This document shows, in pieces, positions 39,012-56,350 of a stretch of DNA of 60,599 bases (its first letter is position 1; every line of letters starts with the position of its first letter). The position numbers and the translations under genes are program-made. Source of the DNA: a virus (taxonomy: Duplodnaviria; Caudoviricetes); the IMG/VR virus record IMGVR_UViG_3300048856_000135, positions 1 through 60,599 of that record; one strand, written 5' to 3'. The notes beneath the pieces were generated by a model, which did no database searches, was not told where the DNA came from, and worked only from the letters and a program-made list of their open reading frames with translations.

Positions 39012-39088
39012 AAAGATTGGTGTGTGTTTTTTTGATGTTAAAACAATGTTGAAACAAAGTGTAACTAATCACCAATTTTATGCTTTTA

Positions 39089-39154: not shown

Positions 39155-39172
39155 TGTACCCAGCGCCGGAGT
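39155..39172 (-). other. Probable att core, tRNA-Leu 3'-end fragment
   Basis: Reverse complement ACTCCGGCGCTGGGTACA resembles T-arm/acceptor 3' end of Bacteroidota tRNA-Leu; lies between two integrases; arm-like direct repeats at 39036/39047 and 39299/39311. Confidence 0.6.
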
Positions 39173-39331: not shown

Positions 39332-40573
39332 ATGATCAATCCGAAGTTCCATTTACAAGCCCTAAAATCGGCTAACGAAGGCGACTATCCTATCCTGATG
39401 TTGTTCAGTGTAAATAAAGCCAGACTCCAGTATTATACTGGCATCCGAATGCCTAAAAAATACCATGCGAAAAATGGGAAGTATCCATTTTCAAATAAGT
39501 GGCTAGAAGCGCCAGGAGTTAAGATGAAACTTGATGCTTTACTTAGACACGCCTACTCTATTGAGTCGGATTTGATCAAAGAAGGTGTCACTCAAACGGT
39601 CGATATTTTCCGAGAGGAACTGGATAAAAGATTTAAAGGCAGACAAGCCGAGAAAGTGAAGTCGTCAACTCTGGAAGATCGTATTGCTGAATACCTTGAA
39701 TATGTAAAGAATAACTTGGCATACAATACCTTCAAGAATAATCAATCCGGCTTAAACCATTTCAGGACGTTTTTAAGCAAAAAAGCCACAACCCTAAAGG
39801 TTTCAGACGTGGATGAAAATCTAATTGAAGGCTTCAACGATTACCTGAAAGCAGGCAGATTAAATAACACCGTTGTAAAAGCAATGCAGGTACTCAGGAC
39901 CTTTTTGCAGTACTGCCTAAAGAAGAAATACATCGCATCTCTCCCGCTCTTAGAAACCGGCAGCCCCAACAACATAACGGTAATTCACTTGAGCCATGAA
40001 GAGGTATTACAAATGGCTAATACTGCTATGCCCAGCCCAACTTTAGAGCGTGTAAGAGACTTTTTTGTATTTGGGTGTTTTACTGGTATGCGGTACTCAG
40101 ACATTGCCGGGCTGAAGAAGAGCAACGTTTTTAAGGACCACATCAAGTTTTTTATCCAGAAAAGCGGTGCAACCCAGGCATTAACTGTGCCCTTCACGCC
40201 AATGAGTAAAATGATCATCGACAAATACAAAGACATACCTGGCGAATATGCATTGCCATCAATAAGCAACCAAAAGACAAACGACTACCTTAAAGAGGTT
40301 GCAGCCCTGGCAGGCATCAACTCAGTAGTTGAAATTGCTCATAAAACAGCGGCCGGCCGAATCGAAAAAATTGAAACAACGAAGGATCAGCTTATCAGTT
40401 GCCATACAAGCCGTAAAAGTTTCATCACTATAGCCATGACGCTTGGCATGCCTGAAAGCGTGATAGTATCAATAACGGGCCACACTAAAGGATCTAAAGC
40501 TTTCCACAAATACTATGATGTAGTCAACTCGACGAAGTTCGACCAGATGGCTAAAATTTTTAATACAAACTAA
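39332..40573 (+). CDS. int: Tyrosine integrase of element B
   Basis: FGCFTGMRYSD, SCHTSRKSF, ITGH...FHKY. Confidence 0.95.
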   Translation: MINPKFHLQALKSANEGDYPILMLFSVNKARLQYYTGIRMPKKYHAKNGKYPFSNKWLEAPGVKMKLDALLRHAYSIESDLIKEGVTQTVDIFREELDKRFKGRQAEKVKSSTLEDRIAEYLEYVKNNLAYNTFKNNQSGLNHFRTFLSKKATTLKVSDVDENLIEGFNDYLKAGRLNNTVVKAMQVLRTFLQYCLKKKYIASLPLLETGSPNNITVIHLSHEEVLQMANTAMPSPTLERVRDFFVFGCFTGMRYSDIAGLKKSNVFKDHIKFFIQKSGATQALTVPFTPMSKMIIDKYKDIPGEYALPSISNQKTNDYLKEVAALAGINSVVEIAHKTAAGRIEKIETTKDQLISCHTSRKSFITIAMTLGMPESVIVSITGHTKGSKAFHKYYDVVNSTKFDQMAKIFNTN

Positions 40574-40574
40574 G

Positions 40575-41576
40575 ATGAGCAACAACCACGACTACAAGTA
40601 TTTCATTGAGCTCTGTCATAAAATGTCTGATACGTTGGATGAAGTTCCTTATCCTGAAGTTGATATCTCATTTGATGAATGGGGAACCATAACTCATCAC
40701 GCAATTAAGGGGATTAAAGAAAATTTGTATAACCTTGCAAGTGATAAGCAGCGTGAATTTTTCTTATTGGACGTTTTTGAGAACATCTTCAATGAATTAA
40801 ATAATATATTTTACCTTGTTTCAAATGAATATTTGTTTAAGGACGATAAAATTCAAGAACAGGCAAATCAGATAATAGAGGAAAGGCGCAACACTCCTGA
40901 CTTTGACGCGGAACCTGAATGCTATGTGAAACCATGGGATCGATATTTTCTACATAATAAATCGACGGCGTATATAAATCGCTGTGGCCTCAGTGTTTAT
41001 ACATTTACAAGCGAGGTCTCAGAACTTTGTTATGACTATGGAATTAAATTTGAAGAAATTATTAATAAGGTCATGATTTGGAATAATGTATCAAGCGGTG
41101 ATATTCGTCCTTTTTTCCATTATAAAGTATCCTCAGGAGGTTATATGGTAATGGGTGATTATGAGCCAACAAATCAGCCTACCACCGAAGTATCTGCAAA
41201 AGTAATACAGCTTAGCAAGCGTAGTTCTGCTATTGAATTTTCAGACATCTTCCACAGTAAGTACAAAGATGATTATATGGCCTTTTTCGATGAGCTAAAG
41301 AAAGAGCAATTTGGGTTCATAACTTCTGACGATAAGTGGAAAACTAAAGCTCGTGCCTATCAATTCTATAAACTGCTACAAAAAGGGGAAATCAAGGTGA
41401 TTAGAGAAACACTACCTGATGGCAGAATTATTAACGATACGATTGTTAAAGACCTTTTCCATAATGTCTTTGGAATAGAACCTGAAAACTTTAGAGCAAG
41501 AACTGCTCTAACTAAAGACAATGAGGATAAGTTTAATAGTGCAATACGATCTGTTGCCAACAGAATCAAGGGATAA
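40575..41576 (+). CDS. AT-rich hypothetical protein coupled to integrase
   Basis: ATG 1 nt after int stop; terminator follows. Confidence 0.7.
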   Translation: MSNNHDYKYFIELCHKMSDTLDEVPYPEVDISFDEWGTITHHAIKGIKENLYNLASDKQREFFLLDVFENIFNELNNIFYLVSNEYLFKDDKIQEQANQIIEERRNTPDFDAEPECYVKPWDRYFLHNKSTAYINRCGLSVYTFTSEVSELCYDYGIKFEEIINKVMIWNNVSSGDIRPFFHYKVSSGGYMVMGDYEPTNQPTTEVSAKVIQLSKRSSAIEFSDIFHSKYKDDYMAFFDELKKEQFGFITSDDKWKTKARAYQFYKLLQKGEIKVIRETLPDGRIINDTIVKDLFHNVFGIEPENFRARTALTKDNEDKFNSAIRSVANRIKG

Positions 41577-41599
41577 GGCTATTTAATCATCTACCTCAC

Positions 41600-41627
41600 A
41601 AACCTGCTCAAGTAGCGGGTTTTTTTG
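41600..41627 (+). terminator. Intrinsic terminator
   Basis: AACCTGCT-caagt-AGCGGGTTTTTTT. Confidence 0.75.
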
Positions 41628-41793
41628 TGCTTTGTTATTTCTTAATGGCGAAAATATTCGTGCTTATTAAGACTATTTGATGTGTAAGTGATAATAACAT
41701 ACAACTATTTTCTTCCATTTTTTCCATTTATGGAAGCTTTGGAAGTTCTGGAAAACCGACCTGAGTACGTTTGTAACAACAAATCACAAACAC

Positions 41794-42111
41794 ATGGGCA
41801 TTAACATTTTAACAGAAGAACAAGCCAAAGCAATGGCAACCGAATGCGGCCTCGCTGCAGTGCAGATGTTCATTGAAAAATACCTGCCAGGCTTCCAAGA
41901 TTTTCAAAAAGCACCAACCCCGGCAGAGAAAGATCAAATGATGACTGTCAAAGAACTTGCAGAGTACTGGGGTTGCCACATCCAATCTATAAGACAGAAG
42001 AAGCGTAGCGGCGAGCTGCCTTTTTATCAGCATAAGCGAACCATCCTATTTAAAAAGTCTGAAATCGATGCGTTGACTGCCAATCCGCTTCCTAAAAAAA
42101 GAGGATACTAG
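41794..42111 (+). CDS. Excisionase/HTH_17 DNA-binding protein
   Basis: MTVKELAEYWG...GELPFYQ...ILFKKSEIDA. Confidence 0.85.
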   Translation: MGINILTEEQAKAMATECGLAAVQMFIEKYLPGFQDFQKAPTPAEKDQMMTVKELAEYWGCHIQSIRQKKRSGELPFYQHKRTILFKKSEIDALTANPLPKKRGY

Positions 42112-42114
42112 TTT

Positions 42115-43578
42115 ATGAGTGTCGAGGCGAAAAAAGTACTTATCTATAATCGGCTTGAACCGCTGTTACGGGAAAAAGTTCAAGACTCTCGAGATCCAGC
42201 GGAGAGGGTAATCTTTGAGGGCATTGAATACTCCTTGTATGAACTTCGTGGATTGATTAATGAAAACCAACGCGAGTACGGTGAACCTTCAATGAGCTTT
42301 GGCCCGGGCTTCAACAACAATTATGAAAACTATCCTCCACTAAAGCCAACAGCCGAATCTATCAGAGAAGTCGAAATTGATACTGACCGGAGTAAAGGTG
42401 CCGTAAAGAAAAATAGTTTACTAAATCCAAAGGCAGCTGAACAATTTGGAAGGGGAATTACGACAACCCAAGAAGAGCCCGCAAAAGTAGTCGAGTGGCT
42501 AACTGGTGAAGACCTGTTTAAAATGAGTGGTGAGAAGCCACCGATGCTTATCGACGGCATTGCACCGCAGGTAGGAATCCTTGCACTAGTAGGATCTAGC
42601 GACACCGGTAAAAGTATGCTTCTTAGGCAGCTGGCAATTTCATGTGTTCGAGGGTTTAACTTTTTAGGATTTAAGCTAAATGTTAGGTACGCGGCAGCCC
42701 TACTTGTAGTGACTGAAGATGAGGCGCAAAACCTAAGATGGATATATGGAAAGCAGACCGAAAATAATCCACAAGGTTTAGAAAACCTGCACTTCCTGTT
42801 TGACAGCGAAGACATCATTGCAAGGCTCGAGGAAAAGCTTATTCATATCAAAGTAGACATTATTATTGTTGACGCATGGGGTGATGCCTTTACTGGCAAC
42901 CAGGTGGATAGTGGTCAGATCAGACAAAAGCTCAACGAATACAAGGCGTTAGGCCAGAAGCATGATTGTGCCGTAGCGTTTTTACACCATACCGGAAAAC
43001 GAACCCAAAAGCTAGTGCCTTCAAAGGATAACATTCTAGCAGGTCAGGGCTTCGAAGCTAAGATGCGGTTAGTAATGGAACTTAGGGAAGACATTCAAGA
43101 CCCTGATTATAGACATCTCTGCATTGTAAAAGGCAACTACGTAGGCAAGGAAAACAAGAACAGCAGCTTTAAATTATTCTTCGATCCTGAAACTTTCTTG
43201 TTCTCAAACACTGGCGAGCGTGTACCATTTGAAGAACTCGCCACCATAACTGAAACCGGGTACCCAGCTAAGGTTCCTAGTAAAAAACCCTATGAGATTG
43301 AAGATTTTATTCATAAAGAATTACTCCTACAAGTATTCTCCGGAAAGTTTGCAAAACCAAAACTTAAAGATCTACTCACCCGCCTAAGCTCAAAATACGA
43401 AGCAAAATTCGGTGGCACATACGGCGGAAAAAGAGTGGACGCGCTTCTGGATTACCTATTAAATGATATAAACTTCATCGCTAAGCACGGGGTAGACAGA
43501 AGCCCTCAGGCATATTACTATTTAACATTTTTAACTACTGAGCACCCTACTGGCTACCCTGAAAATGGTGGTGAGTAG
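42115..43578 (+). CDS. AAA_25/RepA-like helicase
   Basis: GSSDTGKS, IIIVDA, FLHHTGK motifs. Confidence 0.88.
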   Translation: MSVEAKKVLIYNRLEPLLREKVQDSRDPAERVIFEGIEYSLYELRGLINENQREYGEPSMSFGPGFNNNYENYPPLKPTAESIREVEIDTDRSKGAVKKNSLLNPKAAEQFGRGITTTQEEPAKVVEWLTGEDLFKMSGEKPPMLIDGIAPQVGILALVGSSDTGKSMLLRQLAISCVRGFNFLGFKLNVRYAAALLVVTEDEAQNLRWIYGKQTENNPQGLENLHFLFDSEDIIARLEEKLIHIKVDIIIVDAWGDAFTGNQVDSGQIRQKLNEYKALGQKHDCAVAFLHHTGKRTQKLVPSKDNILAGQGFEAKMRLVMELREDIQDPDYRHLCIVKGNYVGKENKNSSFKLFFDPETFLFSNTGERVPFEELATITETGYPAKVPSKKPYEIEDFIHKELLLQVFSGKFAKPKLKDLLTRLSSKYEAKFGGTYGGKRVDALLDYLLNDINFIAKHGVDRSPQAYYYLTFLTTEHPTGYPENGGE

Positions 43579-43628
43579 TACTACTGACTACCCCCTAAAA
43601 TACCTTAGGTATTAGGGTGGTGAGTAGT
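43535..43628. repeat. Iteron cluster, probable origin of element B
   Basis: CTACTG..(T/C)ACCC x3, inverse-like GGTGGTGAGTAGT x2, palindrome AATACCT-T-AGGTATT; between helicase and primase. Confidence 0.6.
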
Positions 43629-43645
43629 GACCTAAATAATAACGA

Positions 43646-44653
43646 ATGATTATGCAATACATACCTGAAAAATGCAGCCTATTCAAACCATATCTCTACA
43701 ATGGACAATGGTGTATGGGAACAAAACCGGAAACAGTCGGTATACTGGACATGCTAACTTACCAGTGGCAACCTGAACTTATAGAAAAGGTTAGACAAAC
43801 AGCAGATAAAGATGAAAGGTCAGCACTTAAAAGACAATTATGGGCAATATCTCCCTCAAGCATACAAGAGAAAGGCCGGGGGGTAAAATATGTTGTCGAA
43901 CACAACTCTTTATTGCAGTTCGATATTGATCCAAAAGACAACCCTATCCTACTTGAATCAGGTGGCCTGCAGAAAGTTAAGGAATGCCTTATCAAGATTC
44001 CATATACTGTCTATTGTGGCTTATCATCTAGTGGTACCGGCATTTGGGGATTCTTTAGGATTAGCCATCCACATCTACATGAGCAGCATTTCAATGCCAT
44101 GGAAAAAGCATTTGATCAGATTGGGATTGTGATAGATCCCGCTCCCAAATCTACCGCGTCAATAAGGTTCGTTTGCCATGACCCTGATGCATTCTATAAC
44201 GATGATCCAAAAATCTTTGATCTCAGGCTTGAACCGGTCGTAAAAGAAAAGAAATCTCTAGTGACAGAAGGTAAAAGCTCCGATCAATCCGATGGGAAAG
44301 ATCTGATAGCAAACTTCAACACTAATTGTACGCCTGATTCGATTGATGAGATTCTTACAAACTTCGGATTCAATTATCATAGTCACCAAGGCAAATCATA
44401 CCGTTATACCCGGCCCGGCAAGGACACGAAAGCAGGGTTAAGTGTAGACTACCATGAAGATAAACGAACACTGTATTGCTTCTCAAGTGAAGTGCCTGGT
44501 CTTGAACACTGGAAGAATGATAAAGCTGGATGGAGTTGTAGCCCCTTGACGGCGCTAAGGGTTTATGGGTTTGGTATGCCCTCCGAAAATGACGACGCCA
44601 AGCGAGAACATTGGGCAAATGTATTTAACTACATAAAGTCAAAGCTTCCATAA
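43646..44653 (+). CDS. BT4734/BF3469 (VirE N-terminal) primase-like protein
   Basis: LLQFDID, SSSGTGI, IDPAPKS...RFVCHDP; C-terminal YTRPGKD. Confidence 0.8.
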   Translation: MIMQYIPEKCSLFKPYLYNGQWCMGTKPETVGILDMLTYQWQPELIEKVRQTADKDERSALKRQLWAISPSSIQEKGRGVKYVVEHNSLLQFDIDPKDNPILLESGGLQKVKECLIKIPYTVYCGLSSSGTGIWGFFRISHPHLHEQHFNAMEKAFDQIGIVIDPAPKSTASIRFVCHDPDAFYNDDPKIFDLRLEPVVKEKKSLVTEGKSSDQSDGKDLIANFNTNCTPDSIDEILTNFGFNYHSHQGKSYRYTRPGKDTKAGLSVDYHEDKRTLYCFSSEVPGLEHWKNDKAGWSCSPLTALRVYGFGMPSENDDAKREHWANVFNYIKSKLP

Positions 44654-44904
44654 CATTTAATAATTGGAGAAATAATGAAAATACCCCTGTTTCCGCCCCG
44701 TGTCCGCTTCGGGGTAAAATGTTCGAAAATGAGCCGTTACGGGAAAATCCCGTATCGATGCACCGGCGACCAGGATGCGTCAGGCTAAACGACCGAAAAA
44801 TAGCATTGGTATTCTGATCAGGAGTACATTAAGCACGTCCAACTATTTGAAAAACAACTTATTAGAATACATCAAAGGAATTTATATACAAAATCATACA
44901 CACA

Positions 44905-45279
44905 ATGGATAAAAATGAACCTAAAAAGCCCGATAAACCAAACCTATTTAAGCCGGGTATGGTGGCTAATCCGAATGGTAGACCGAAAGGATCGCCAAAT
45001 AAGATAAATGCTCGCGTCAAAAACTTAATTGAGAAGTTCTACTTCGACAATGAAGAAACTATGCAGGCTGATTTCGATTCATTAGATGCTAAAGACCGCT
45101 GGGCAGTACGGCTTAGAATGCTTCCTTTCATAACACCAACTATGATGGCATCTAAAGAGGAAAAGACGATCAACCATACCGGCTTTGAGCATATGAGTAC
45201 AAAACAGCTAAGAGACATATTACTAAAATTCAACCCATCCAAAGATGCAGAAGACATTGACCATACAGAAACAGAATAA
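44905..45279 (+). CDS. Small-terminase-like protein 1 (DUF5681-like)
   Basis: FKPGMVANPNGRPKGSPNK; overlaps terL start. Confidence 0.75.
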   Translation: MDKNEPKKPDKPNLFKPGMVANPNGRPKGSPNKINARVKNLIEKFYFDNEETMQADFDSLDAKDRWAVRLRMLPFITPTMMASKEEKTINHTGFEHMSTKQLRDILLKFNPSKDAEDIDHTETE

Positions 45280-46693
45280 AGAGGAATTAGAAGCTATCAG
45301 GCGGGAGCTTATTATAAGAGAGAGCCGAGAGAACCTTTTAATGTTTACCCGTGCTACAATGCCATCGTTTGAGGCTACCTGGTTTCATCAGATGTATATA
45401 GGTAGATATTTGAATGACTTCGCTCATGGCAGGATTAAAAAGCTAATGATTTTTTGCCCCCCCCAACATGGTAAGTCTGAGGGATCAACCAGGAGGCTGC
45501 CAGCCTACCTTCTCGGTCTGAATCCAGATCTAAAGGTTGCAATCGTATCCCACACAGCATCACTAGCCAGTAAGTTCAATAAGGAAATCCAGCGGATTAT
45601 CGATGAGCCCTCCTATCAAGAGATATTCCCTTCAACAACGCTATCTAATGGTAACGACAATTATGCGAGGAACAATACCGAGCTTGAGGTTGTAGGCCGC
45701 AGAGGGGGTATAAGGTCGATCGGTGTTGAAGGTGGGTTAACTGGTGAAAGTGTGGATATCCTGATTATGGATGACTTGTATAAGGATGCAATGGATGCCT
45801 GGTCACCGATTGTACGGGCCAACGTTGAAGATTGGTACTCAACCGTAGCTGAGACACGCCTGCATAATGATAGCCAGCAGCTTATCGTATTTACCAGATG
45901 GCACCATGAAGATTTAGCAGGCAAGCTCCTATCCCACCCAGATCATGGATGGACAGTGATTGCCTATCCTGCTATCAAAGTTGGCGATCAGACCGAAGAT
46001 GATCCCCGCGAAGATGGTGAGGCTCTATATCCACAAAAGCACAGCATTGAGCGCCTTGAGGCCAAGCGGAATAGTGATGCATACGTCTTTGAATGCATGT
46101 ATCAGCAGAATCCACAACCAAAGGAAGGCTTGCTTTACCAGCCGTTTAAGACCTACACTGAGGTGCCTACCATCGGTGTTACTCGCAAAGCATTTGTGGA
46201 CACTGCGGACCTTGGCAAAGATTATTTATGCTCAATCGCATATGCTGAGACTAAGGATGGAATATTCGTGCTGGATATCATCTACACTCAGGAAGGTATG
46301 GAGATCACTGAACCTAAGACAGCGAAGCAGTTCTATGATCACCAGGTGCAATATGCAGTAATTGAATCCAATAATGGAGGACGTGGCTTTGCACGCAACG
46401 TAGAGGCTAAAAGCAAGGAGTTAGGCAATCACCGCACCCGAATTGAATGGTTTACTCAGTCGCTTAATAAGCTTGCCAGGATCAACACAAATTCGACAAC
46501 CGTCAACAACCTCGTGCACATGCCTGAAGGATGGAATACCATGTGGCCGCGGTTCTACAATCACATCACAAACTATTCAGCAATTGGCAAGAATGCCCAT
46601 GATGATTGTGCCGATACCTTGACCGGCATGGGTGAGCGCTTCAAAGGCGGCACTAAGCGTTCTAACTTCCGCGTATTCTCAAACATACATTAA
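45245..46693 (+). CDS. terL: Terminase large subunit
   Basis: PPQHGKS, LIMDD, FTRWHHEDL, YQQNP, FVDTA, IESNNGG, HDDCAD. Confidence 0.92.
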   Translation: MQKTLTIQKQNKEELEAIRRELIIRESRENLLMFTRATMPSFEATWFHQMYIGRYLNDFAHGRIKKLMIFCPPQHGKSEGSTRRLPAYLLGLNPDLKVAIVSHTASLASKFNKEIQRIIDEPSYQEIFPSTTLSNGNDNYARNNTELEVVGRRGGIRSIGVEGGLTGESVDILIMDDLYKDAMDAWSPIVRANVEDWYSTVAETRLHNDSQQLIVFTRWHHEDLAGKLLSHPDHGWTVIAYPAIKVGDQTEDDPREDGEALYPQKHSIERLEAKRNSDAYVFECMYQQNPQPKEGLLYQPFKTYTEVPTIGVTRKAFVDTADLGKDYLCSIAYAETKDGIFVLDIIYTQEGMEITEPKTAKQFYDHQVQYAVIESNNGGRGFARNVEAKSKELGNHRTRIEWFTQSLNKLARINTNSTTVNNLVHMPEGWNTMWPRFYNHITNYSAIGKNAHDDCADTLTGMGERFKGGTKRSNFRVFSNIH

Positions 46694-46703
46694 CCCCAAA
46701 CAT

Positions 46704-46880
46704 ATGATAACAGAAGCAAAAAACACCCCGCTAGAATTAGTATTGACTCAGACAGATAAAGCTGATCTCATCAAGTTAATCATCGAAATCGAACAGATCA
46801 ACAGTGCAAACCCCAAGGATGCCAGGTACCAGATTAACCAAGTGATTCTTGACAGCATTCCTAACTACGTATTCATTTAA
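46704..46880 (+). CDS. Small hypothetical protein, 58 aa
   Basis: ATG 46704 shortly after terL. Confidence 0.5.
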   Translation: MITEAKNTPLELVLTQTDKADLIKLIIEIEQINSANPKDARYQINQVILDSIPNYVFI

Positions 46881-46891
46881 ACCCTACAGCT

Positions 46892-47071
46892 ATGACAAGA
46901 GAACAACTACACGATCAGATTGGTGACTACATAGAGTTAGCCGCCACAGACATCACAGCTGCGCACCGCATGATTGAACTTTATGCCCAGTTAGCATTGA
47001 TGTTAGGTAAGGACATTAAAGAACTTACCGCCGAAAACATAAGACTTAAACAACATCTGAAGAACAAATAA
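46892..47071 (+). CDS. Small hypothetical protein, 59 aa, absent from track
   Basis: MTREQLHDQIGDYIELAA... fills operon gap. Confidence 0.5.
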   Translation: MTREQLHDQIGDYIELAATDITAAHRMIELYAQLALMLGKDIKELTAENIRLKQHLKNK

Positions 47072-47090
47072 ACAAACTTAATACAAGATC

Positions 47091-47345
47091 ATGAAACAAA
47101 TCGCAGAAACCCCTACTCACACCGTTCACCTTGATTATTTTCAAGGCCAACAGATGAGAATGCACCGGAATAAATTAACCGGCGAAGTATCATTTAACAC
47201 TGATGATGTGGCGAAAGTATTAGGCTACAAGGACCACAATGATATGATGAGTGATCCAAAAGTCCAGGCTAAGCTAATAGAGTTTGAGACTTTGACTGGA
47301 AAGTCTGCTATCAAGGAGTCCCTTATTAACAGTCACTTGAATTAA
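47091..47345 (+). CDS. BRO-N-like/antirepressor-like DNA-binding protein
   Basis: FQGQQMRM...GEVSFNTDDVAKVLGY. Confidence 0.6.
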   Translation: MKQIAETPTHTVHLDYFQGQQMRMHRNKLTGEVSFNTDDVAKVLGYKDHNDMMSDPKVQAKLIEFETLTGKSAIKESLINSHLN

Positions 47346-47359
47346 CAACCCCTAACATT

Positions 47360-47587
47360 TTGAAGATTATCAAGCTGAAAGCGCCGGTGCCGGAGTTTAA
47401 GGCCAGCCAAGAAATGGAGAACTTCTTTAAAGCGGTGATCCTCATTCATCAGTGTGATTCCTTTATTGAATTAGATGGTGCTGCATCCGTCATTGACGGT
47501 TCATCAGGAACTTTCGATTCGATCGACTACAGTCAACTTAAAAGTATGATTACCAATCACCGAAACAGAATTTCAAGAAACACATAG
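47360..47587 (+). CDS. Hypothetical protein
   Basis: ORF with TTG start in operon. Confidence 0.4.
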   Translation: MKIIKLKAPVPEFKASQEMENFFKAVILIHQCDSFIELDGAASVIDGSSGTFDSIDYSQLKSMITNHRNRISRNT

Positions 47588-47591
47588 CAAC

Positions 47592-47747
47592 ATGAGCAAA
47601 AAAGTAGATAAAGAAATGATCAGAATCCTGGAGCAGGAGATCAAGAACGTATACGCCAATAGGCATATGGACAAGGATTACAAGCAAGCTAAAATCAAGG
47701 AGCTTAAATCACTAATTGAAGAAGAAAGGGAAAAGTCCTATGCATAA
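47592..47747 (+). CDS. Small hypothetical protein, 51 aa, absent from track
   Basis: MSKKVDKEMIRILEQEIK...; overlaps next ATG 47740. Confidence 0.5.
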   Translation: MSKKVDKEMIRILEQEIKNVYANRHMDKDYKQAKIKELKSLIEEEREKSYA

Positions 47748-48144
47748 TATTAAAGTCGCCCGGCCTATTCAACATTTAGGATATATCAAGCTGAAATATC
47801 CTGAAATATTTAACGAAGCAGACCAAGTAGTAAAGCAAAAACATTTGAAGGACTGGAGTTTAGTCAAACCAATTTATGAGCTGATGTACGAAACAACTGA
47901 GAACCCTGCAGAACAACGACACTTTTTTTTAGCCGTGTTAGTTGAACTGTTTTACCCGACTAGACGAACATGTGGAGTAAAGTTCAAGCCAGGCCTAAGA
48001 GATGTGATTTCAGAAGCTATGGGATACAAAAACCCAGAAATGGTGAACTATGTAGGCGAGCCGATTGAAGCGCACATGAAAAACCCCAGATTCTGCAACA
48101 GAGTAAAAGAGACTGCGGAATACTTTCTAAACGAGTACCAATAA
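47740..48144 (+). CDS. Hypothetical protein
   Basis: FFLAVLVELFYP...GLRDVISEAMG; start reassigned. Confidence 0.6.
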   Translation: MHNIKVARPIQHLGYIKLKYPEIFNEADQVVKQKHLKDWSLVKPIYELMYETTENPAEQRHFFLAVLVELFYPTRRTCGVKFKPGLRDVISEAMGYKNPEMVNYVGEPIEAHMKNPRFCNRVKETAEYFLNEYQ

Positions 48145-48217
48145 AAAAGGAGCCTAAGCTCCTGTTTTCCCTGCTTATTCTTAAGCGGGTTTTTGTTTTT
48201 AGGCAGATTCTGCCTTA

Positions 48218-48460
48218 CTATCTTTTAATTGCCTTGATCGCGGCAGCATTCTTTGCTCTTTTTGCGTCTTGGACTGCTTTAAATTGCTCCTTGGATAATA
48301 GTTCACTTTCTTCAAACTCGTCATATCCGAAGATTTCATTAATCAAAAATCTACACTTGTACTTTCCCCCGGTAATTTTCTTAACAACAAACAAGTCAAT
48401 CTCATTGAAGCCTGGGTATACATGTTTAACAATGTCTCCAGGATTAATTAATTCATTCAT
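48218..48460 (-). CDS. YodC/DUF2158-like small protein
   Basis: PGDIVK...YKCRF...EFEESEL. Confidence 0.55.
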   Translation of the reverse strand: MNELINPGDIVKHVYPGFNEIDLFVVKKITGGKYKCRFLINEIFGYDEFEESELLSKEQFKAVQDAKRAKNAAAIKAIKR

Positions 48461-48592
48461 ACAATTTGCTTTTTAGGTTTACAAGATATAAAAAATTCGT
48501 GCTGATGTACTAACCTACCATAGTAAATGCAACTGCTTTTCAGCGCCTTATCAACGGGGTATCTTTATGTTATCAACAAAAAGGCAGAAAAT

Positions 48593-48808
48593 ATGGCATT
48601 CACAAAAGGCAAAAGCGGTAATCCTTCAGGCAAGCCGCCCGGAACAAAAAACCGCAACAAACAACCCCTACACAATCGTATTGAATCCTTACTCCTTAAA
48701 AATTTCGATCAGATCGAGAAGGACTTTGAGGTAGTAGCGCCTGAAGTAAGGCTGGAAATGATCGCAAACCTTGCCGGATTAGTTAACCTAAACAAACAGA
48801 CAGTATAA
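48593..48808 (+). CDS. Small-terminase-like protein 2 (DUF5681-like)
   Basis: MAFTKGKSGNPSGKPPGTKN; paralogous to 44905; start reassigned. Confidence 0.7.
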   Translation: MAFTKGKSGNPSGKPPGTKNRNKQPLHNRIESLLLKNFDQIEKDFEVVAPEVRLEMIANLAGLVNLNKQTV

Positions 48809-49026
48809 TGGAACACAGAGAAAGAATGGCTGCGCAGCGTGCATACGTTGAGACCACACTAGCAGGCTACAAGCAACGTCAAAGACAAGAGATTATCTCA
48901 CAAATCCCCTATATGAGGTTAGATGAAAATGAGCTTGCTGAGTACGTCGCTACAAAAAAGCAGGAGTTCGACAATGAGGCCCCCGAAGAAGAAGTAAATG
49001 AAGTACTTAAAAACTTCATGATCTAA
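48808..49026 (+). CDS. Hypothetical protein
   Basis: TAATG coupling to previous gene. Confidence 0.6.
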   Translation: MEHRERMAAQRAYVETTLAGYKQRQRQEIISQIPYMRLDENELAEYVATKKQEFDNEAPEEEVNEVLKNFMI

Positions 49027-49044
49027 CCTTAACACCTACACACA

Positions 49045-49767
49045 ATGGAATCTACAACTACTGAACAAAGGATCTTAATACACCAGGATGATGCTCTATT
49101 GAATGACATACTGAGGGATTTAAATGTTTATATCACTCCGCTCAACAATTTGAAAGATGCTTATGAGGCGCTTCAATTAGGGGACTTCTCTGATAAAGTA
49201 CTCAAACAGCTTACGACGAAAGGCATCGATGAAATTGTAACAACTTATCGAAAAAGCTTAAACGATAACCTGGATAGTACCGGAGTCGTAAACACCATCC
49301 TCAGAACAATAGCTTTGCAAGGTTCAGAAGAACCAGTATCGAACCTTCATCGCGCATTAAAGGAGGCGCTTAATGCAAAGCCTGAGCCTAAGGGAGGTAT
49401 TAGTTCAAGCGCGCGGACTCAACTGCTTTTACTCCCGGATATATCCTTCAAGAACGGTCAATTCGGAGTATTCGATCAGGAGTCAATCTTGGAACGACAC
49501 TGCCGAATTTATGTCGAGGATAAAAAGTCCAGAGAAATCTATTTCAATCTCTTGAAGGTCCAAGAATCACTACAGGACTATGTAAAATGGGTGAATGACT
49601 TAGGATTACCTAGAGGAATATTCGGCGGTTCTTTTACCGACAATCTTAAAGAGTTTTTCAGCTACAACCCTGAAACTTTCGAAATAGCGATTAGACCTAC
49701 ATCTATTAAGTGGGCAGTCAATCTCAAGGGAGAAAGAGAAAGAATGCAGGCCCGATTTAACCGATAA
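49045..49767 (+). CDS. Hypothetical protein, 240 aa
   Basis: Long ORF in operon. Confidence 0.7.
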   Translation: MESTTTEQRILIHQDDALLNDILRDLNVYITPLNNLKDAYEALQLGDFSDKVLKQLTTKGIDEIVTTYRKSLNDNLDSTGVVNTILRTIALQGSEEPVSNLHRALKEALNAKPEPKGGISSSARTQLLLLPDISFKNGQFGVFDQESILERHCRIYVEDKKSREIYFNLLKVQESLQDYVKWVNDLGLPRGIFGGSFTDNLKEFFSYNPETFEIAIRPTSIKWAVNLKGERERMQARFNR

Positions 49768-49778
49768 AGGAAACTATC

Positions 49779-49934
49779 ATGGAAGAAAACATTGAAGGCC
49801 AAAAAGCCACAGAACAAAAAGTAAATGAAATACTTGATGTGATCGGCGGTTTTCCAAAACCTAGTTCAAAGCCGGTTGAACCAACTGAAGAAAGCAAGGT
49901 GATTGATGATATATGTAGAAACCTCGGAATTTAA
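49779..49934 (+). CDS. Small hypothetical protein, 51 aa, absent from track
   Basis: MEENIEGQK...; TAATG coupling to next gene. Confidence 0.5.
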   Translation: MEENIEGQKATEQKVNEILDVIGGFPKPSSKPVEPTEESKVIDDICRNLGI

Positions 49935-50278
49935 TGAAAGGCGCAATTCCAATTAGCATAAACGACAAAAGCGTTCCTAAGGTTATCCGCAGGAAAGCAA
50001 AGCTTATAGCAGAACTATGGGCCAAAGGTAAGTTTGATAAGCTGCGGGCACTTAGAGATAGTTCAAGGAGCTTTGATATTCAAATCTACCATCATTCTCA
50101 GGGCACTGATAGCTACTATCATGATACTGAAGGCAGGTACTACACCTGGGCACAGATTGAAGCTATGGACGCTCGTAGACTGGATGCAGGTGAACATTTC
50201 TCAACAGTTGTAATTCCCTACAAAGCAGGAATTCATTTCACGAAGAGCAGTCTTGCTCCAAATCCCTCCCTAAACTAA
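49934..50278 (+). CDS. Hypothetical protein
   Basis: 114-aa coupled ORF. Confidence 0.6.
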   Translation: MKGAIPISINDKSVPKVIRRKAKLIAELWAKGKFDKLRALRDSSRSFDIQIYHHSQGTDSYYHDTEGRYYTWAQIEAMDARRLDAGEHFSTVVIPYKAGIHFTKSSLAPNPSLN

Positions 50279-50282
50279 CAGC

Positions 50283-50747
50283 ATGCTCAACATCACCGCT
50301 GATTTCAATTTAAAAGCTCTGAATAGTCACCTTGAGAACTTTATCGAGGACAAAAAAAACAACCTGGTTGAAATCTTGAAAAAAGCCGGCGAAGAAGCGG
50401 TTGATCGCTCAAGAGCTAAAGCTAAGACAGGCCCATTTACAGGTGGGGGTTTTGGAAACATCACCTGGAATCTAAGGGGATCTATTGGATATGTGATCGT
50501 AAAGGATCACCAGATCATCGACAGATACTTCCCGCCCCTTCCAGATGGAGATCAAGGGACCGCCAAAGGTATAAAGTACGCCGAAGAAATTGCACTACTG
50601 CTAGACGATGGTGATATAATGCTGATAGTCGTTGCAGGCGAAGAGTACGCGTACTTCGTGGAAGCTAAAGGCTACGATGTTATATCTGGATCGGAGGCTC
50701 ACATGGAATCAGAATTAAGAACGGCATTAACATACTCAAGAAAATAA
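50283..50747 (+). CDS. HK97-gp10-like neck/tail completion protein
   Basis: TWNLRGSIGYVI...VAGEEYAYFVEAKGYDV. Confidence 0.7.
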   Translation: MLNITADFNLKALNSHLENFIEDKKNNLVEILKKAGEEAVDRSRAKAKTGPFTGGGFGNITWNLRGSIGYVIVKDHQIIDRYFPPLPDGDQGTAKGIKYAEEIALLLDDGDIMLIVVAGEEYAYFVEAKGYDVISGSEAHMESELRTALTYSRK

Positions 50748-50751
50748 TAAA

Positions 50752-53700
50752 ATGGCTGGAGAATTAAACTATAAGGCTGGACTTGACATCAGCAACTTTA
50801 TTAAAAGCAGGGATGAGATACTAAAATCTTTCAAACAGCTAAAAGACGTAGGTGGAGTATCCCTTTTCGATAATAAACCTTTAACTGCATTCAAACAGGC
50901 TCAATTGAGGATGCAGGAATCTTTAAGGGATGCAAGGCTTGAAACCCAACGCTTAAAGAACGAGCAGTTGGAACTGAAGAAACAGCTTGAAGCTGGTAAA
51001 GTAACGGCACAAGCATATCGTACCGAAACAGCAAAACTCACAGCACAGCAAGCAGCTCTAAGAAGCGCTACAAAGTTAGCTAGAGACTCCCAGGGAGCAG
51101 TGAATGGATCGTATAAAGAGGCTCAATCACGTTTGGCAGCATTAGGAAGAGAGATCCGGAATACCACAGGAGGATTCACCAGCCAGTCACCAGCATTGAA
51201 GGCGCAAATACGCGAGTATAATGAACTTAATGACAAGCTAAAGAGCTTCGATGCCAGTATGGGTAATCATCAGCGTAACGTTGGTAATTACGGTGGTGTC
51301 TTAGGTGGTGTAGTTGGCAAACTTTCCGGGCTTGCTGCAGGGTTCTTATCTGCCCAGGCATTACTTACATCCTCATTTGATACCGCCCTAAGAACTGATG
51401 CAATCAAAACATCATTGGAATTCACATTTGATAGTGTTGATGTAGCAAAAGAGAAGATGGATGGCTTACGTGCAACATCCGAAAGATTAGGGCTTGAATA
51501 CATTGGTCTTGCTGATGCTTACAGAGCCTTTGCTGGTGCTGCAGTCGCTTCTAACTTTCCACTGACTGAAACAGACCGGATATTTAACGCGGTTGCCAAC
51601 GCCGGCGCTAAATTGAAGTTATCATCTGATCAGGTCAGTGGTGCTTTAACCGCATTGCAGCAAATGATTAGTAAAGGTAACGTGCAGGCAGAAGAATTGA
51701 GAGGGCAATTAGGTGAGCGTTTACCTGGCGCCTTTGCAATTGCAGCCCGGGCAATGGGTGTTACGCAGCAGGAACTAGGGGAATTGATGAAGGCGGGGAA
51801 GATTACTGCTGATGAACTTCTCCCAAAGCTTGCCACTGAACTTGATAAAACATTTAAGAATGATACCACCGAAAAGGTTTCAAGCCTTCAAGGGGCTGTA
51901 AATAGGCTTAAGAACGCATTTACCGAAGTTGTAGAAACCAAAGGTGCAGTGAGCGCATTCTTTGAATTTGTAGTCGATAAGGCTGGTGCAACAGTTCGGG
52001 CAATTGGAGTACTTAGTAAAGCACTTGGAATCTTCTATGACCTAGCATCTGATCCAAAAAAGCTAATTGGCGACAGCGCGAGAGATTCCAGGAACAAAAC
52101 GAATACTGCAATAACCAGTAAAGCTAATTCCAGCGCCTCAACGGTAGCTAAGGATCTTGGCAAGTCGGAGTTGGTTGACCGGATCAATGCCGAGGTTACT
52201 GCGTTGAGAAGGATTAATGCCGAATATGAAAAATCCAAAAAGGTGTATGAAAGCGTTCGCGCCAGTGACAGGAGTTTAGCAGACACAAAACGTATACAAG
52301 CTGTTGAAGCAAATCTAAAGTACCAGCAGGCATTCGTGACCGGCTTAAAGAATGAGTTTGGGACCTTGTTTCCTGCCATTCAAAAATCAACACGGGAATT
52401 GAGTTCGATTGCTGCAATCCGGGCCGAAATCACCAGGTTATCCAAAATGGATGGATCCGCGACTAAGGGCAGTGATTCCTGGAAGAAGATACAGGACCTA
52501 AAAACGCAATTAAAGGAAGCGGCGGGTACTAGCGATAATTCTAAATCAGAAGCAAGAGAACATGAAAGCATGTTAAAGCGCCAACGTGCTTTACAATCAG
52601 AAATCGAAACCTTGCACGTAAATGCCGTTAAAAAGCAGAAAACTCAAGATGAACAGGAGATTGAAGCTGTTGAGATAAAGTATGATGCTATCCGGAAAAA
52701 GATCGCTGACTTCTATAGTGATCCGCGTAATACCGGTAGACAATATAAGGTCAACGTTTCGACCGTTAACAAAGATCAGTCTATTGAGACAGAAAATATC
52801 CTTGCTGATCAGCGGCTTAAAAAAGAACAGCAGACAATTGATGCTCAAAAAGTTTTGTTTAAAGAGTACGAGCAGTATAAGCTTGAAGTCGGTGTGCAGA
52901 TGGCAGATGATAGATTCAGTAGCGATTTAAAGGGTTACAAGACATTTGTTGATTATTTGAAAGGTCTTATGCCCTCAGAGAAAGATACATCAGCATACGC
53001 GAACAGAATGCGTGATATGTTAAGCAAAACTATCCCCGCCGCGACAAACGAGCAGTCAGAACAGCAGGAAAAGCGATTCAGCCAACTTCTCGTCGACACT
53101 CAGTCCTTTGAAACTCAAAGAAACCTACTGATTGAAAGATACACGAAGCAAGCATCTGATCTAAGAGCTAAGGGTTATGATAACCAGGCTGCCATGGCAA
53201 TTGCTTATGGCAATAAGGAATTAGAGCAGTTTGATTCTAATACCATTCAGCAAATCGAAGGCTATCGTTTTCTATTCGAAGGGTTCACTAGAATGTCAAC
53301 AGAGGCTATCGATCAGTACATTCAGAAAGCTAAACAGAAAGCCGACACGGATCTGGCACTAGGTCTTATCACGCAGAAAGCCTACGATCAGGTAATTGAA
53401 GCCATCAACAACTCTAAAGGTGCTTTAAATAGCGCAATACCAACTCAACTACGTGGTTTTGCTCAAATCTTCAAAGACCTTGCCTCCTCTACTGACGGTT
53501 TATCTAAGGGATTGACAAATGTTCTCAATATCCTAGGTGATATGGTTAATGCTGCAGCTGACGTGAAGCAAGGTATTTCCGACACAAAAAGTGCTATCGC
53601 CAATTACAAGGATAACAAAGCTGATGCGGGGGGTGGTCTACTTGGTACGCTTTCAGCAGGGCTCGCTATTGCTGGACCTGCTGGAAAAGCAATAAGTGCA

Positions 53701-54840
53701 GTTGTTGGTGTAGTAAAAGGCATTACAGGATTTTTCAAAGCTGCTAAGGAAAGTGCGAAACAGGCAGCTGCTGAATTGCAGGCTTATCAAGATAATGCTT
53801 TCAAGGGAGAAATTGCCTACAACCAGCTGTTACGTGAACGTGCAAGGACAATGAAGAGTATAGGCGATTTGTCGTTGTCAGAATTGAAAACCCAACAAGC
53901 AATCCTTGCAGCACAGAAAGGTCAGTCTCAGACCGATGCCGATAGATTACTTGCAAAAATTAGACTGTCAGGTCAGCAGATAACTGGAACCCATATTGAG
54001 AAAAAAGGTGGTTTCCTCGGTATAGGCAAAAAGAGCTACACCGTTCAGGATACTGCAGGTTTAGCGGGAGCCACCTACGAGCAACTAGAAGAGCTTTATA
54101 CTAGAGGTAAATTGACTGACGCTACTAAAGCCTGGTTCGAGGAATTGAAGAAAGCAAAAGAAGAAACCGATGGTATTGTTGATGCTGCAAAAGAAGCTCA
54201 AAACGCAATCAATCAAGCTTTGACCGGAACAACAGCAAACAGTATTGCTGATGCCATTATTAACGGTTTTAAGCAGGGCAAAAGAACAGCAGCAGACTTT
54301 GCAGATGATTTCAAAACATTGATGAGTGATGCTATGTACCGCGCATTGAGTGAAGACTTTTTAAATGAAGCGATCGCCGAGTTCTACAAAAAATTTGCTG
54401 AGGCTTCAAAAGATGGGCTAACTGAAACCGAAATAAAAACGCTCCGAGATAGTTATGCCGGAATAATCCAAGAAGGAGCCAGACAAGCAGAGAACATTGA
54501 GAAGGTTATTGGACCTTCTGCGGCCTCATCAGGCACCAAGCCAACAGGCATAACAGCCGAAATTGCAGACAAGATCACTCAGCAACAAGCTAGCGAACTA
54601 GCAGGATTATACCGGGCACAATATGACGTGAGTAAGAAGACAATGGCCTACACATTGGACGGCAATAAAGTGCGCATTGATTGCTTTAATATTGCCCGTC
54701 AGCATTTAGAGGTGGCTGTACAAAATGAGCGGAATACCTTTCGGACAGCCAATAACACGGAAAGACTAGCGGCTATGGAGGCCTCCTTGAAGGCAATAGC
54801 GAACAACACTTACTCACAATCAAGTAGAGCGTTGTTATAA
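50752..54840 (+). CDS. Tape measure protein, 1362 aa
   Basis: HQRNVGNY; tape-measure domain ALQQMISKGNVQAEELRGQLGERLPGA; long coiled coils. Confidence 0.9.
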   Translation: MAGELNYKAGLDISNFIKSRDEILKSFKQLKDVGGVSLFDNKPLTAFKQAQLRMQESLRDARLETQRLKNEQLELKKQLEAGKVTAQAYRTETAKLTAQQAALRSATKLARDSQGAVNGSYKEAQSRLAALGREIRNTTGGFTSQSPALKAQIREYNELNDKLKSFDASMGNHQRNVGNYGGVLGGVVGKLSGLAAGFLSAQALLTSSFDTALRTDAIKTSLEFTFDSVDVAKEKMDGLRATSERLGLEYIGLADAYRAFAGAAVASNFPLTETDRIFNAVANAGAKLKLSSDQVSGALTALQQMISKGNVQAEELRGQLGERLPGAFAIAARAMGVTQQELGELMKAGKITADELLPKLATELDKTFKNDTTEKVSSLQGAVNRLKNAFTEVVETKGAVSAFFEFVVDKAGATVRAIGVLSKALGIFYDLASDPKKLIGDSARDSRNKTNTAITSKANSSASTVAKDLGKSELVDRINAEVTALRRINAEYEKSKKVYESVRASDRSLADTKRIQAVEANLKYQQAFVTGLKNEFGTLFPAIQKSTRELSSIAAIRAEITRLSKMDGSATKGSDSWKKIQDLKTQLKEAAGTSDNSKSEAREHESMLKRQRALQSEIETLHVNAVKKQKTQDEQEIEAVEIKYDAIRKKIADFYSDPRNTGRQYKVNVSTVNKDQSIETENILADQRLKKEQQTIDAQKVLFKEYEQYKLEVGVQMADDRFSSDLKGYKTFVDYLKGLMPSEKDTSAYANRMRDMLSKTIPAATNEQSEQQEKRFSQLLVDTQSFETQRNLLIERYTKQASDLRAKGYDNQAAMAIAYGNKELEQFDSNTIQQIEGYRFLFEGFTRMSTEAIDQYIQKAKQKADTDLALGLITQKAYDQVIEAINNSKGALNSAIPTQLRGFAQIFKDLASSTDGLSKGLTNVLNILGDMVNAAADVKQGISDTKSAIANYKDNKADAGGGLLGTLSAGLAIAGPAGKAISAVVGVVKGITGFFKAAKESAKQAAAELQAYQDNAFKGEIAYNQLLRERARTMKSIGDLSLSELKTQQAILAAQKGQSQTDADRLLAKIRLSGQQITGTHIEKKGGFLGIGKKSYTVQDTAGLAGATYEQLEELYTRGKLTDATKAWFEELKKAKEETDGIVDAAKEAQNAINQALTGTTANSIADAIINGFKQGKRTAADFADDFKTLMSDAMYRALSEDFLNEAIAEFYKKFAEASKDGLTETEIKTLRDSYAGIIQEGARQAENIEKVIGPSAASSGTKPTGITAEIADKITQQQASELAGLYRAQYDVSKKTMAYTLDGNKVRIDCFNIARQHLEVAVQNERNTFRTANNTERLAAMEASLKAIANNTYSQSSRALL

Positions 54841-54912
54841 CCTTGCAGTTATATAAAAACCAAATGTTGGCAAAAAAGCATTAAATTAAACCACACCAAG
54901 AAAGCATATTAC

Positions 54913-55188
54913 ATGAATGAACATCAAGAAATGAAAGACATCCTTGAAGGCTTAAGGAAAAATAACAACGAGCTGCAATATCAGGCAATCATAATTTCCA
55001 CAGATTTCCCAGACCTGCCCGAGGAAGTTAAATTGCTTCTTACATCTTACGCGATCGATCAAGAAGCCAACAGAGCTATAATTCGTGAGTTAGGAGCAAA
55101 TATCGTAGCTAAGGACAAGTTGATTGCAGTTCTACAAGAACTTACAAATCGTCAAGAGGAGATAATCAACGGGAATGAGGAAGATTAA
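54913..55188 (+). CDS. Hypothetical coiled-coil protein
   Basis: 91-aa ORF. Confidence 0.55.
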   Translation: MNEHQEMKDILEGLRKNNNELQYQAIIISTDFPDLPEEVKLLLTSYAIDQEANRAIIRELGANIVAKDKLIAVLQELTNRQEEIINGNEED

Positions 55189-55230
55189 AATATCCTAATT
55201 GACCAAAGCTCAAACCAAACTACCTTCAAT

Positions 55231-55542
55231 ATGGATTTCAATTTAAGCGCACTGCAGAAAGCGGTTAATCAAAAGTTTGTCGAACCAGAAAATGAACCGG
55301 TCGAGTTTCATTTGACTGATGATTCCACAATCAAGGCTAAGTTCGGCAATGTTGTATATTTCTTCACTTATCAAAAGCTGGAAGTAGTGCTATATTTCAA
55401 CGGTTTCACTCATTACTACAAGGAGGACACTCAGGAGCAACTTACCGAACTGCTGAGCAGACATATAATGAACCAAATAAATGCTGGCAGAGGGAAAAAA
55501 TTGTATCCCGAGATAAAGTCCGCACCAGGGGATTTGATTTAG
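55231..55542 (+). CDS. Hypothetical protein
   Basis: 103-aa ORF. Confidence 0.55.
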   Translation: MDFNLSALQKAVNQKFVEPENEPVEFHLTDDSTIKAKFGNVVYFFTYQKLEVVLYFNGFTHYYKEDTQEQLTELLSRHIMNQINAGRGKKLYPEIKSAPGDLI

Positions 55543-55568: not shown

Positions 55569-55796
55569 CTATAGCTGAACGAAGCTTTCTTCAAACAATA
55601 TCTCATCCATTCTGTCCAGATGTTCTAGAAAATCGGAGCTCTTATTAGACACCACCTTGTTTTTGAAATCAACTATGCATATAACATCTGCCTTTGCATT
55701 CTTCAATGAAATTTCCAGAAGTAAAATGTCTTCGTGTGTGCTCCGGTCCTGAATTCTATAACCCAAGTCCGGAGTATAATATATTATTCTTACCAT
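55569..55796 (-). CDS. Conserved 75-aa hypothetical protein, copy 2
   Basis: Paralog of 9637-9864. Confidence 0.8.
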   Translation of the reverse strand: MVRIIYYTPDLGYRIQDRSTHEDILLLEISLKNAKADVICIVDFKNKVVSNKSSDFLEHLDRMDEILFEESFVQL

Positions 55797-56309: not shown

Positions 56310-56348
56310 ATAAATAACCCCGACTGCATAACGTAGCCGGGGTTATTT
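56310..56348. terminator. Bidirectional terminator
   Basis: AAATAACCCCG...CGGGGTTATTT. Confidence 0.7.
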
Positions 56349-56350
56349 GT

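Follow-up and report, generated by a model that had tools for sequence, protein, structure and literature searches.

A putative capsid-less phage satellite with its own large terminase and tape measure protein, found beside a prophage in an IMG/VR record

The IMG/VR provirus record IMGVR_UViG_3300048856_000135 (60,599 bp, analysed here at its full length and called the window) consists of two elements lying back to back, which IMG/VR files as a single provirus. The first, prophage 1, extends up to ~39,080, while the second, the subject of this study, spans 39156 to beyond 60599, where the record ends, so that it measures at least 21.4 kb and has its right end outside the record. We consider it probable that this second element is a phage satellite, integrated in a Sphingobacteriaceae-type host and dependent on a helper, within a family whose core is made up of an integrase, a regulator, a primase/helicase, a DUF5681 protein and a 240-aa protein (p240). 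It encodes an intact large terminase (TerL), a neck protein and a 1362-aa tape measure protein (TMP), and no portal, major capsid protein (MCP), tail tube, tail tip or lysis gene was detected in 39012-60599 with PHROG, tblastn or profile hidden Markov model (HMM) searches. The host is most likely a Sphingobacteriaceae-type member of the soil Bacteroidota; a tblastx comparison of window positions 1-2800 with the host flanks of two related elements, in G001 and G185 (G denotes genomes and L loci throughout), gave no match.

The lack of head and tail genes was examined with two kinds of search. All open reading frames (ORFs) of ≥ 80 aa from Porphyromonas phage005b, two related phage contigs and prophage 1 were used as tblastn queries against 39012-60599, where they matched the integrase, TerL, the neck gene and one shared cassette only, without traces of a portal, capsid, tail tube or chaperone gene. 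In addition, 12 profile HMMs were built from phage genes of related phages, including MCP, portal, adaptor and head closure; only those for TerL and neck matched in the same interval, and the four named gave no match in the element. When the 12 profiles were applied to 11 satellite-like loci, the matches were again confined to TerL (2 loci), neck (11) and tail completion (4), while two phage loci run alongside, both of which had contributed sequences to the profiles, returned 11 and 8 families. Both searches thus bear out the initial annotation, which had noted neither capsid, portal and tail tube genes nor structural remnants in this region. No match to P4-type families (Psu, Delta, Sid or the primase) was reported among the element ORFs tested (20 ORFs against Pfam and 29 against PHROGs; E cut-offs 0.01 to 0.1).

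What the element does carry follows a recognizable order. The succession of integrase, helix-turn-helix (HTH) regulator, helicase, origin and primase, described initially as similar to that of phage-inducible chromosomal islands (PICIs), was recovered (Table 1), with an HTH_17 protein, an AAA_25 helicase and a BT4734-like primase in the respective places and an iteron-like repeat cluster as the presumptive origin. TerL is intact, as had been proposed, and shares 55% identity with its counterpart in Porphyromonas phage005, 46% with the Bacteroides B40-8 type and 76% with that of an element in P. cryotolerans; the columns which we take to be the P-loop, the acidic DD, the TRW and the nuclease Asp motifs are conserved in an eight-sequence alignment with seven phage and satellite TerLs. 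The gene before it runs 35 nt into TerL. Its reading as TerS-like holds in so far as a DUF5681 protein is present at that place, while the PF18932 score falls just under the cut-off (26 vs. 27.5 bits), the assignment being by DUF5681 and position alone. Between TerL and the neck gene there are only short, tightly packed ORFs, and in the whole stretch from TerL to TMP no ORF exceeds 240 aa. The "gp10-like" gene of the initial annotation turned out to be homologous to the neck protein of phage005b, and the TMP ORF that follows is indeed uninterrupted.

The left end of the element is defined by an attL-like 15-nt core, which stands in the context GTACCCA, eight bases, then GTACATAA; both this GTACATAA context and the 161-nt distance from core to integrase are identical to those at attL of the P. 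cryotolerans element. Since no second copy of the core with ≤ 3 mismatches was found within the window, the right end is placed beyond 60599. The boundary first drawn at 55542 is too early: farther on, at 58212-59670, lie genes whose homologues in related elements sit at the tRNA-proximal end, and a mobilome gene follows at 59994-60599. One of the genes at 58212-59670 (58516-58890) is 58% identical to an ORF near the tRNA end of the G185 element, and two others (59102-59377 and 59383-59670) are 30–31% identical to a tRNA-proximal ORF of the P. cryotolerans element.

This P. cryotolerans element (21.4 kb) is bounded by 15-nt repeats corresponding to the 3' end of tRNA-Leu(GAG) and keeps the gene order of the window, with protein identities of 58% (integrase), 53% (HTH), 36% (DUF5681), 76% (TerL), 28% (the 142-aa protein p142), 42% (the second DUF5681 protein, DUF5681b), 44% (p240), 54% (the 114-aa protein p114), 47% (neck) and 33% (TMP), the TMPs being 33–37% identical over their full length; its replication module differs from that of the window. 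The same capsid-less layout is therefore kept between attachment (att) repeats in a close relative, which argues against a one-off deletion. Between the two elements synonymous divergence (dS) is saturated and nonsynonymous divergence (dN) amounts to 0.21 for TerL and 0.68 for TMP. As to relaxed selection on these two genes, the ORFs are intact and the dN values are as given, while a dN/dS ratio is not computable with dS saturated. A third TerL-bearing relative was present in the runs X2 and X3 (one study, another organism), with TerL, p240 and a neck protein of ~89% identity, and one of its contigs (10,548 nt) is colinear with the window from neck via TMP to 59692. Altogether, at least eight related elements hold neck and TMP without capsid genes, all with intact long ORFs and with genes that are absent from phages, such as p240, while TerL occurs in three only.

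The origin of the neck gene was followed in metagenomes, where searching with the neck profile turned up 474 relatives; 80 loci were kept, and the neck ORF was called in 58 of these (22 were dropped as an overlapping opposite-strand ORF had been chosen). Among the 32 loci with at least 3 kb of upstream sequence, an MCP gene lies no more than 5 kb from neck in 26, and in these the neck gene lies directly downstream of MCP, between the head-closure and tail-completion genes where those were labelled. The six loci without MCP comprise four with satellite marker genes, one that is a phage by other markers and one of another type; conversely, none of nine satellite markers (p142 included) received a label in the 26 phage loci. 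The distance from neck to TMP is 1.7–3.9 kb in phages (17 MCP-positive loci), filled by tail-completion, major-tail and chaperone genes, vs. 4 nt in the window, 381 nt in L106 and 721 nt in L076, with at most a tail-completion gene inside. In a tree of 63 neck proteins, the window neck falls in a clade of nine rows (SH-aLRT 85), of which seven have satellite context, two are unknown (short contigs) and none is from a phage; its sister group, joined with a support of 99, holds 11 phage and six unknown rows. In L082, a phage locus of this sister type, the place expected for TerL is taken by a 450-aa ORF that received no label. A structural model of the neck protein (predicted local distance difference test, pLDDT, 80.8) had no Foldseek match in PDB at E ≤ 1e−3. 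The satellite-like class suggested in the initial annotation thus draws support from the synteny with P. cryotolerans, the saturated dS vs. dN of 0.21 and 0.68, the satellite-only neck clade and the conserved satellite-specific genes. 

The extent of the family was assessed with p240, whose profile retrieved 249 representative clusters at E ≤ 1e−3 from 1.84 billion proteins. A TerL scan of genome contigs yielded one relative, and a scan of IMG/VR with TerL and a four-row p240 alignment yielded the P. cryotolerans provirus only, apart from more distant phages. p240 occurs in 16 of 401 genomes of the Sphingobacteriaceae (the Pedobacter family), and 12 contexts were examined; set aside were a contig of insufficient length, a further G159 locus at the end of its contig and three weak matches. 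An integrase is clearly near p240 in 8 of the 12 contexts, neck together with a TMP of 1342–1428 aa in five (G001, G185, G278, G061, and G159), and TerL in one (G001); several others show only an integrase, replication genes, p240 and DUF5681, followed by genes without a phage-family match. The G185 element lacks TerL. It measures 20 kb, with a 19-nt repeat marking its ends at the tRNA-Leu that also bounds the P. cryotolerans element, and its genes include TerS (phrog_51), p240, neck, tail completion and a TMP of 1428 aa. Like L106, it is a TerS-only relative. The AlphaFold2 model of p240 (pLDDT 94.3) had no Foldseek match in PDB or BFVD at E ≤ 1e−3 and gave sub-threshold leads only in the ESM Atlas, and tblastn against 50,697 phage records found no match. 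On the sequence evidence, then, the element belongs to a conserved family and is not an accident, and we infer that subsets of this family may have added virion parts captured from siphoviruses. Some loci stand apart: L037 (G316:C136) combines a DnaB helicase, p240, a minor-capsid-like protein and neck, and L148 combines TerS, a 1200-aa protein resembling the TMP C-terminus, a 242-aa ORF, neck and a minor-capsid-like protein, and both may represent a second kind of satellite. In L049 (G061:C21) the element with p240, neck and TMP adjoins a tmRNA gene, and a second giant ORF (1359 aa) lies upstream of p240.

In the life cycle that we propose, the integrase and the HTH_17 protein would excise the element after induction, and replication would start from the repeat cluster with the element's own helicase and primase. 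The DUF5681 protein and TerL would then recognise the satellite DNA and package it into procapsids of a helper siphovirus, while the neck protein and the TMP would be built into helper-made tails, as was shown experimentally for the TMP of Vibrio PLEs (PICI-like elements) according to PMC12987554. The structural helper would be a siphovirus of the neck-family lineage and not the adjacent prophage. We infer the roles of p240 and of the neck protein from their context, and one may speculate that the Bro-N/Ant-like protein acts on the helper repressor. All five TMP-bearing host genomes (5/5) hold only the satellite's copy of neck, hence no resident helper of that type. The initial annotation had further proposed that a TMP of 1362 vs. 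1080 aa alters tail length; this found no support, as prophage 1 comes from a structural lineage that is unrelated, and phages with this neck family typically have TMPs of such a length. Related elements encode TMPs of 1322–1697 aa, and the phages with the same neck family 932–1977 aa; since the element's TMP lies inside the latter range, its length argues for matching the tail of the helper, rather than altering it.

Several points weigh against a helper-dependent satellite. Excision, packaging and the use of a helper are predictions; the sequencing runs found consist of assembled contigs, with even depth across the element. TerL needs a portal to dock on, and for the element's TerL neither a cognate portal nor a helper could be identified. 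The TerL (phage005/B40-8-like) and the neck protein (soil-phage clade) may stem from different phage lineages, and on the tree no fewer than four changes of label are required to account for the satellite necks, so that the wider "family" is not one clean lineage and the neck gene was probably captured more than once. Capsid genes beyond 60599 are formally conceivable for this copy, though two att-bounded relatives have none. Finally, the family survey rests on 12 contexts and on 80 of the 474 metagenome matches.

Three other explanations were weighed. The element could be a decaying prophage remnant: deletion would have removed the head and tail genes of a phage005/B40-8-like siphovirus, leaving TerL, neck and TMP behind without a function. 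The phage origin of these genes and the order TerS-like, TerL, neck and TMP, kept from related phages, would fit such a history, which we nevertheless regard as unlikely: the same layout recurs in P. cryotolerans at 33–76% protein identity with saturated dS, the long ORFs are intact in at least eight elements without traces of lost genes, the space between TerL and neck is packed with conserved genes that are unlabelled in all 26 phage loci, and the neck genes sit in a satellite-only clade. We give an equally small chance to an anti-phage island that is not a transmissible satellite and whose copies of TMP, neck and TerL act as decoys or poisons of siphovirus assembly. Tail-assembly interference by mobile elements is described in PMC11364771 and, for Rta, in PMC12987554, and cargo genes are found at the distal end, but a poison needs neither a conserved TMP length (1322–1697 aa) nor the TerL catalytic columns, a replication module or a TerS-like gene, and PADLOC gave no match on 10 downstream ORFs; interference and satellite transfer are in any case not mutually exclusive. 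Least probable is a composite of ~60 kb formed by the element and the upstream prophage, or prophage 1 as the helper whose 1080-aa TMP is replaced, as the adjacency, the divergent integrases at 145 and 161 nt from the same core, a common 1.45-kb cassette with its ~98% identical block and the single IMG/VR entry are set against a prophage 1 with its own TerL, portal, protease and TMP and almost no proteins in common, relatives that stand alone between att repeats, a prophage-1-type TerL that was not found in 5 other host genomes (a search without positive control), and GC contents that differ between the two elements (ranges of about 0.45–0.47 and 0.38–0.44).

If the satellite reading is correct, a capsid-less satellite can own its packaging motor, and the 240-aa family would be a marker gene for the whole group. 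Satellite-encoded tape measures would then reach from Vibrio and mycobacteria to soil Bacteroidota. A broader proposal, which we put forward tentatively and think somewhat more likely wrong than right, is that of a large undescribed satellite superfamily in Sphingobacteriaceae, possibly in wider Bacteroidota, marked by p240 and DUF5681 and supplying low-copy virion interface parts to siphoviruses: TerS or TerS with TerL at the portal, neck and tail completion at the head–tail joint, and TMP inside the tube, the helper making the bulk. In that case the form with TerL, neck and TMP would be the most self-sufficient capsid-less satellite known. The natural series of TerS only, TerS with TMP, and TerL with TMP lets one ask which virion interfaces a parasite must own, a question of consequence as satellites shape phage epidemics and gene flow.

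Table 1. Features of the element and of the adjacent prophage 1, with positions in the window and supporting matches
Feature	Position	Strand	Evidence and remarks
Prophage 1 TerL	18514-20199		38% identity to Microcystis phage TerL
Prophage 1 portal	20838-22196		unrelated to the element's lineage
Prophage 1 integrase	37806-39011	-	22% identity to element integrase
attL-like core	39156-39170	.	reverse complement resembles tRNA 3' end; 161 nt upstream of integrase start
Tyrosine integrase, 413 aa	39332-40573	+	PF13102 1e-13; PF00589 2e-8; phrog_1 9e-30; 58% identity to P. cryotolerans element integrase
333-aa protein	40575-41576	+	no Pfam/PHROG/NCBIfam match; 26% identity to same-position ORF in G033
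HTH_17 protein, excisionase/regulator-like	41794-42111	+	PF12728 4.5e-9; phrog_66 "excisionase and transcriptional regulator" 2e-8
AAA_25 helicase-like replication protein	42115-43578	+	PF13481 7e-20; PHROG primase/helicase families
Iteron-like repeat cluster, candidate origin	43534-43628	.	two 13-nt and two 14-nt copies, inverted orientation
Primase, BT4734-like N-terminal domain	43646-44653	+	PF08800 1e-11; 43–54% identity in G033, G185, L076
DUF5681 protein, TerS-like by position	44905-45279	+	PF18932 1.4e-5, 26 bits (cut-off 27.5); 36% identity in P. cryotolerans
Large terminase TerL, intact	45245-46693	+	phrog_38 1e-96
Bro-N/Ant-like small protein	47091-47345	+	phrog_2899 "anti-repressor Ant" 1e-5; PF02498 0.006, below cut-off; 41% identity in L106
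Satellite-specific protein p142, 142 aa	47716-48144	+	no family match; blastp homologues in G001, G033, G185, L076, L078, L106
Second DUF5681 protein, DUF5681b	48527-48808	+	PF18932 4e-7, 30.9 bits, above cut-off; adjoins p240 in most related elements
p240, 240 aa, family marker	49045-49767	+	profile, structure and genome searches
Satellite-specific protein p114, 114 aa	49934-50278	+	no family match; 53–55% identity in G001, L076, L078, L106
Neck protein	50283-50747	+	phrog_5377 3e-29; 30% identity to annotated "neck protein" of Porphyromonas phage005b
Tape measure protein TMP, 1362 aa, uninterrupted	50752-54840	+	PF20155 1e-27; phrog_18891 2.5e-88 over residues 51-699
Two small ORFs, 91 and 103 aa	54913-55542	+	no match in PHROGs, Pfam, PADLOC
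Cassette common with prophage 1: small minus-strand gene, ~310-nt block 55781-56089, 110-aa plus-strand gene	55569-57053	.	blast vs. 9638-10589
Two small genes, second HicB-like (weak)	57109-57647	-	phrog_497 HicB-like 1e-3; no PADLOC match
Small terminal genes	58212-59670	+	homologues in related elements
Mobilome CxxCx(11)CxxC protein, cargo	59994-60599	-	TIGR04402, 187 bits (cut-off 70), whole profile covered

Homologues of p114 lie upstream of neck in the relatives as well, directly so in the G185-type loci L076 and L078, with a 157-aa ORF in between in G001 and at ~3 kb in L106. At the other end of the element, its integrase begins 320 nt past the end of the prophage 1 integrase (39011). 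Between 39011 and 39332 the two integrase genes diverge from one 15-nt core resembling a tRNA 3' end, from which they are 145 nt and 161 nt away, and this suggests that prophage 1 and the element used the same or an adjacent attachment sequence.

Prophage 1 also encodes a DUF3987 primase/helicase, a ClpP-type protease and tail genes. Its 1080-aa TMP-like gene (34097-37339) stands last, directly before the integrase and after tail-fibre-like genes, which is unusual for a siphovirus. Prophage 1 may have its att pair in a 13-nt direct repeat without mismatches (2670-2682 and 39065-39077; blastn-short E about 0.045); this would make the prophage about 36.4 kb long and leave 1-2670 outside. By blastp, prophage 1 and the element share two cassette genes, the integrases at 22% identity and a weak local match of the element's TMP to the portal ORF of prophage 1 (25.8% over 93 aa); no homologue of the element's TerL or neck was found in prophage 1 by this search, and none of the 12 HMMs matched there.

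The cassette of the element aligns with 9638-10589 of prophage 1 at 84.5% over 523 nt and at 70% over 344 nt, with 1.45 kb shared in total, and was not found in 5 other host genomes. Within it, a non-coding block of ~310 nt (55781-56089 and 9849-10157) is about 98% identical between the two copies while its flanks are 70–75% identical (70–84% for the flanking homologous genes), and the Logan depth of the source run is doubled over this block. The contigs of the third relative cover it at ≥ 80% likeness over a 34-nt stretch only, a blank that shows little. Rfam gave no match on the window at the gathering score, those near the block being sub-threshold only, and the block folds moderately well on either strand (z-scores of −2.9 and −2.6), a result that is not decisive. 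A recent gene conversion between the co-resident elements is a likely cause of this identity; the block could also be a conserved RNA or a shared cis-acting site. At its edge, a terminator-like hairpin with a U-run (56029-56089, minus strand) is found in 9 of 401 genomes of the Sphingobacteriaceae family, with 95% identity in G299, and in two genomes it follows a tRNA gene at a distance of about 170 nt.

The element can be compared with several known groups. The premise that satellites are not known to carry a TMP is outdated: in PLEs, which possess genes for a TMP and a chaperone, tails are chimeras of satellite and helper proteins, and tmp genes are predicted in PLE-like elements and in some capsid-forming PICIs (cf-PICIs), according to PMC12987554, and a TMP is likewise present in the EPIPs of Mycolicibacterium, whose tails are altered, according to PMC12822802. 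TMP-encoding satellites are thus already published. The statement that no known satellite class is defined by TerL plus TMP still holds, in that this combination without capsid or portal is new in the literature searched. No satellites in Bacteroidota were described in the literature searched (full text). PMC10085698 reports > 99.9% of PICIs from Proteobacteria or Firmicutes, with "Bacteroid" absent from its main text, and its SatelliteFinder treats tail genes as forbidden components; because this standard detector rejects them, tail-gene-bearing satellites are filed as prophages.

PLEs resemble the element functionally, as integrated satellites with their own TMP and without tail tube and capsid genes (PMC12987554). 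They differ in that they belong to Vibrio cholerae (PLE11 and others), lack TerL and combine the TMP with a tail assembly chaperone, whereas the element, from another phylum, pairs it with a neck protein (in relatives also with tail completion) and has TerL. With cf-PICIs it shares its own TerS and TerL, the latter here a phrog_38 member overlapped by the upstream DUF5681 gene; some of these also have a predicted tmp according to the published accounts, and they carry head–tail joining genes as well. What defines a cf-PICI, however, according to PMC10085698, is a capsid, portal and head–tail adaptor/connector of its own, none of which was found in the element by the searches above. Classical PICIs, including the Staphylococcus aureus pathogenicity islands (SaPIs), are similar in the order of integrase, regulator, primase/replication and packaging, in their size of ~20 kb and in having no lysis and few structural genes, and some relatives of the element (G185 and L106) likewise carry TerS only; according to PMC10085698 PICIs have no tail genes, in contrast to the 1362-aa TMP and the neck protein of the element. 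The EPIPs are likewise small satellites with TMP, TerS and head-to-tail connector genes and with tails unlike those of the helper, but they are from Actinomycetota, use a serine integrase, were isolated as free particles, and have scaffold and MCP listed, with TerL not among the genes reported (PMC12822802). Siphoviruses of the phage005/B40-8 type, finally, have the closest TerL, the same neck family and the order TerS, TerL ... neck ... TMP, and they possess in addition portal, minor capsid, MCP, adaptor, head closure, tail completion, major tail and chaperone genes, all of which are missing in the element.

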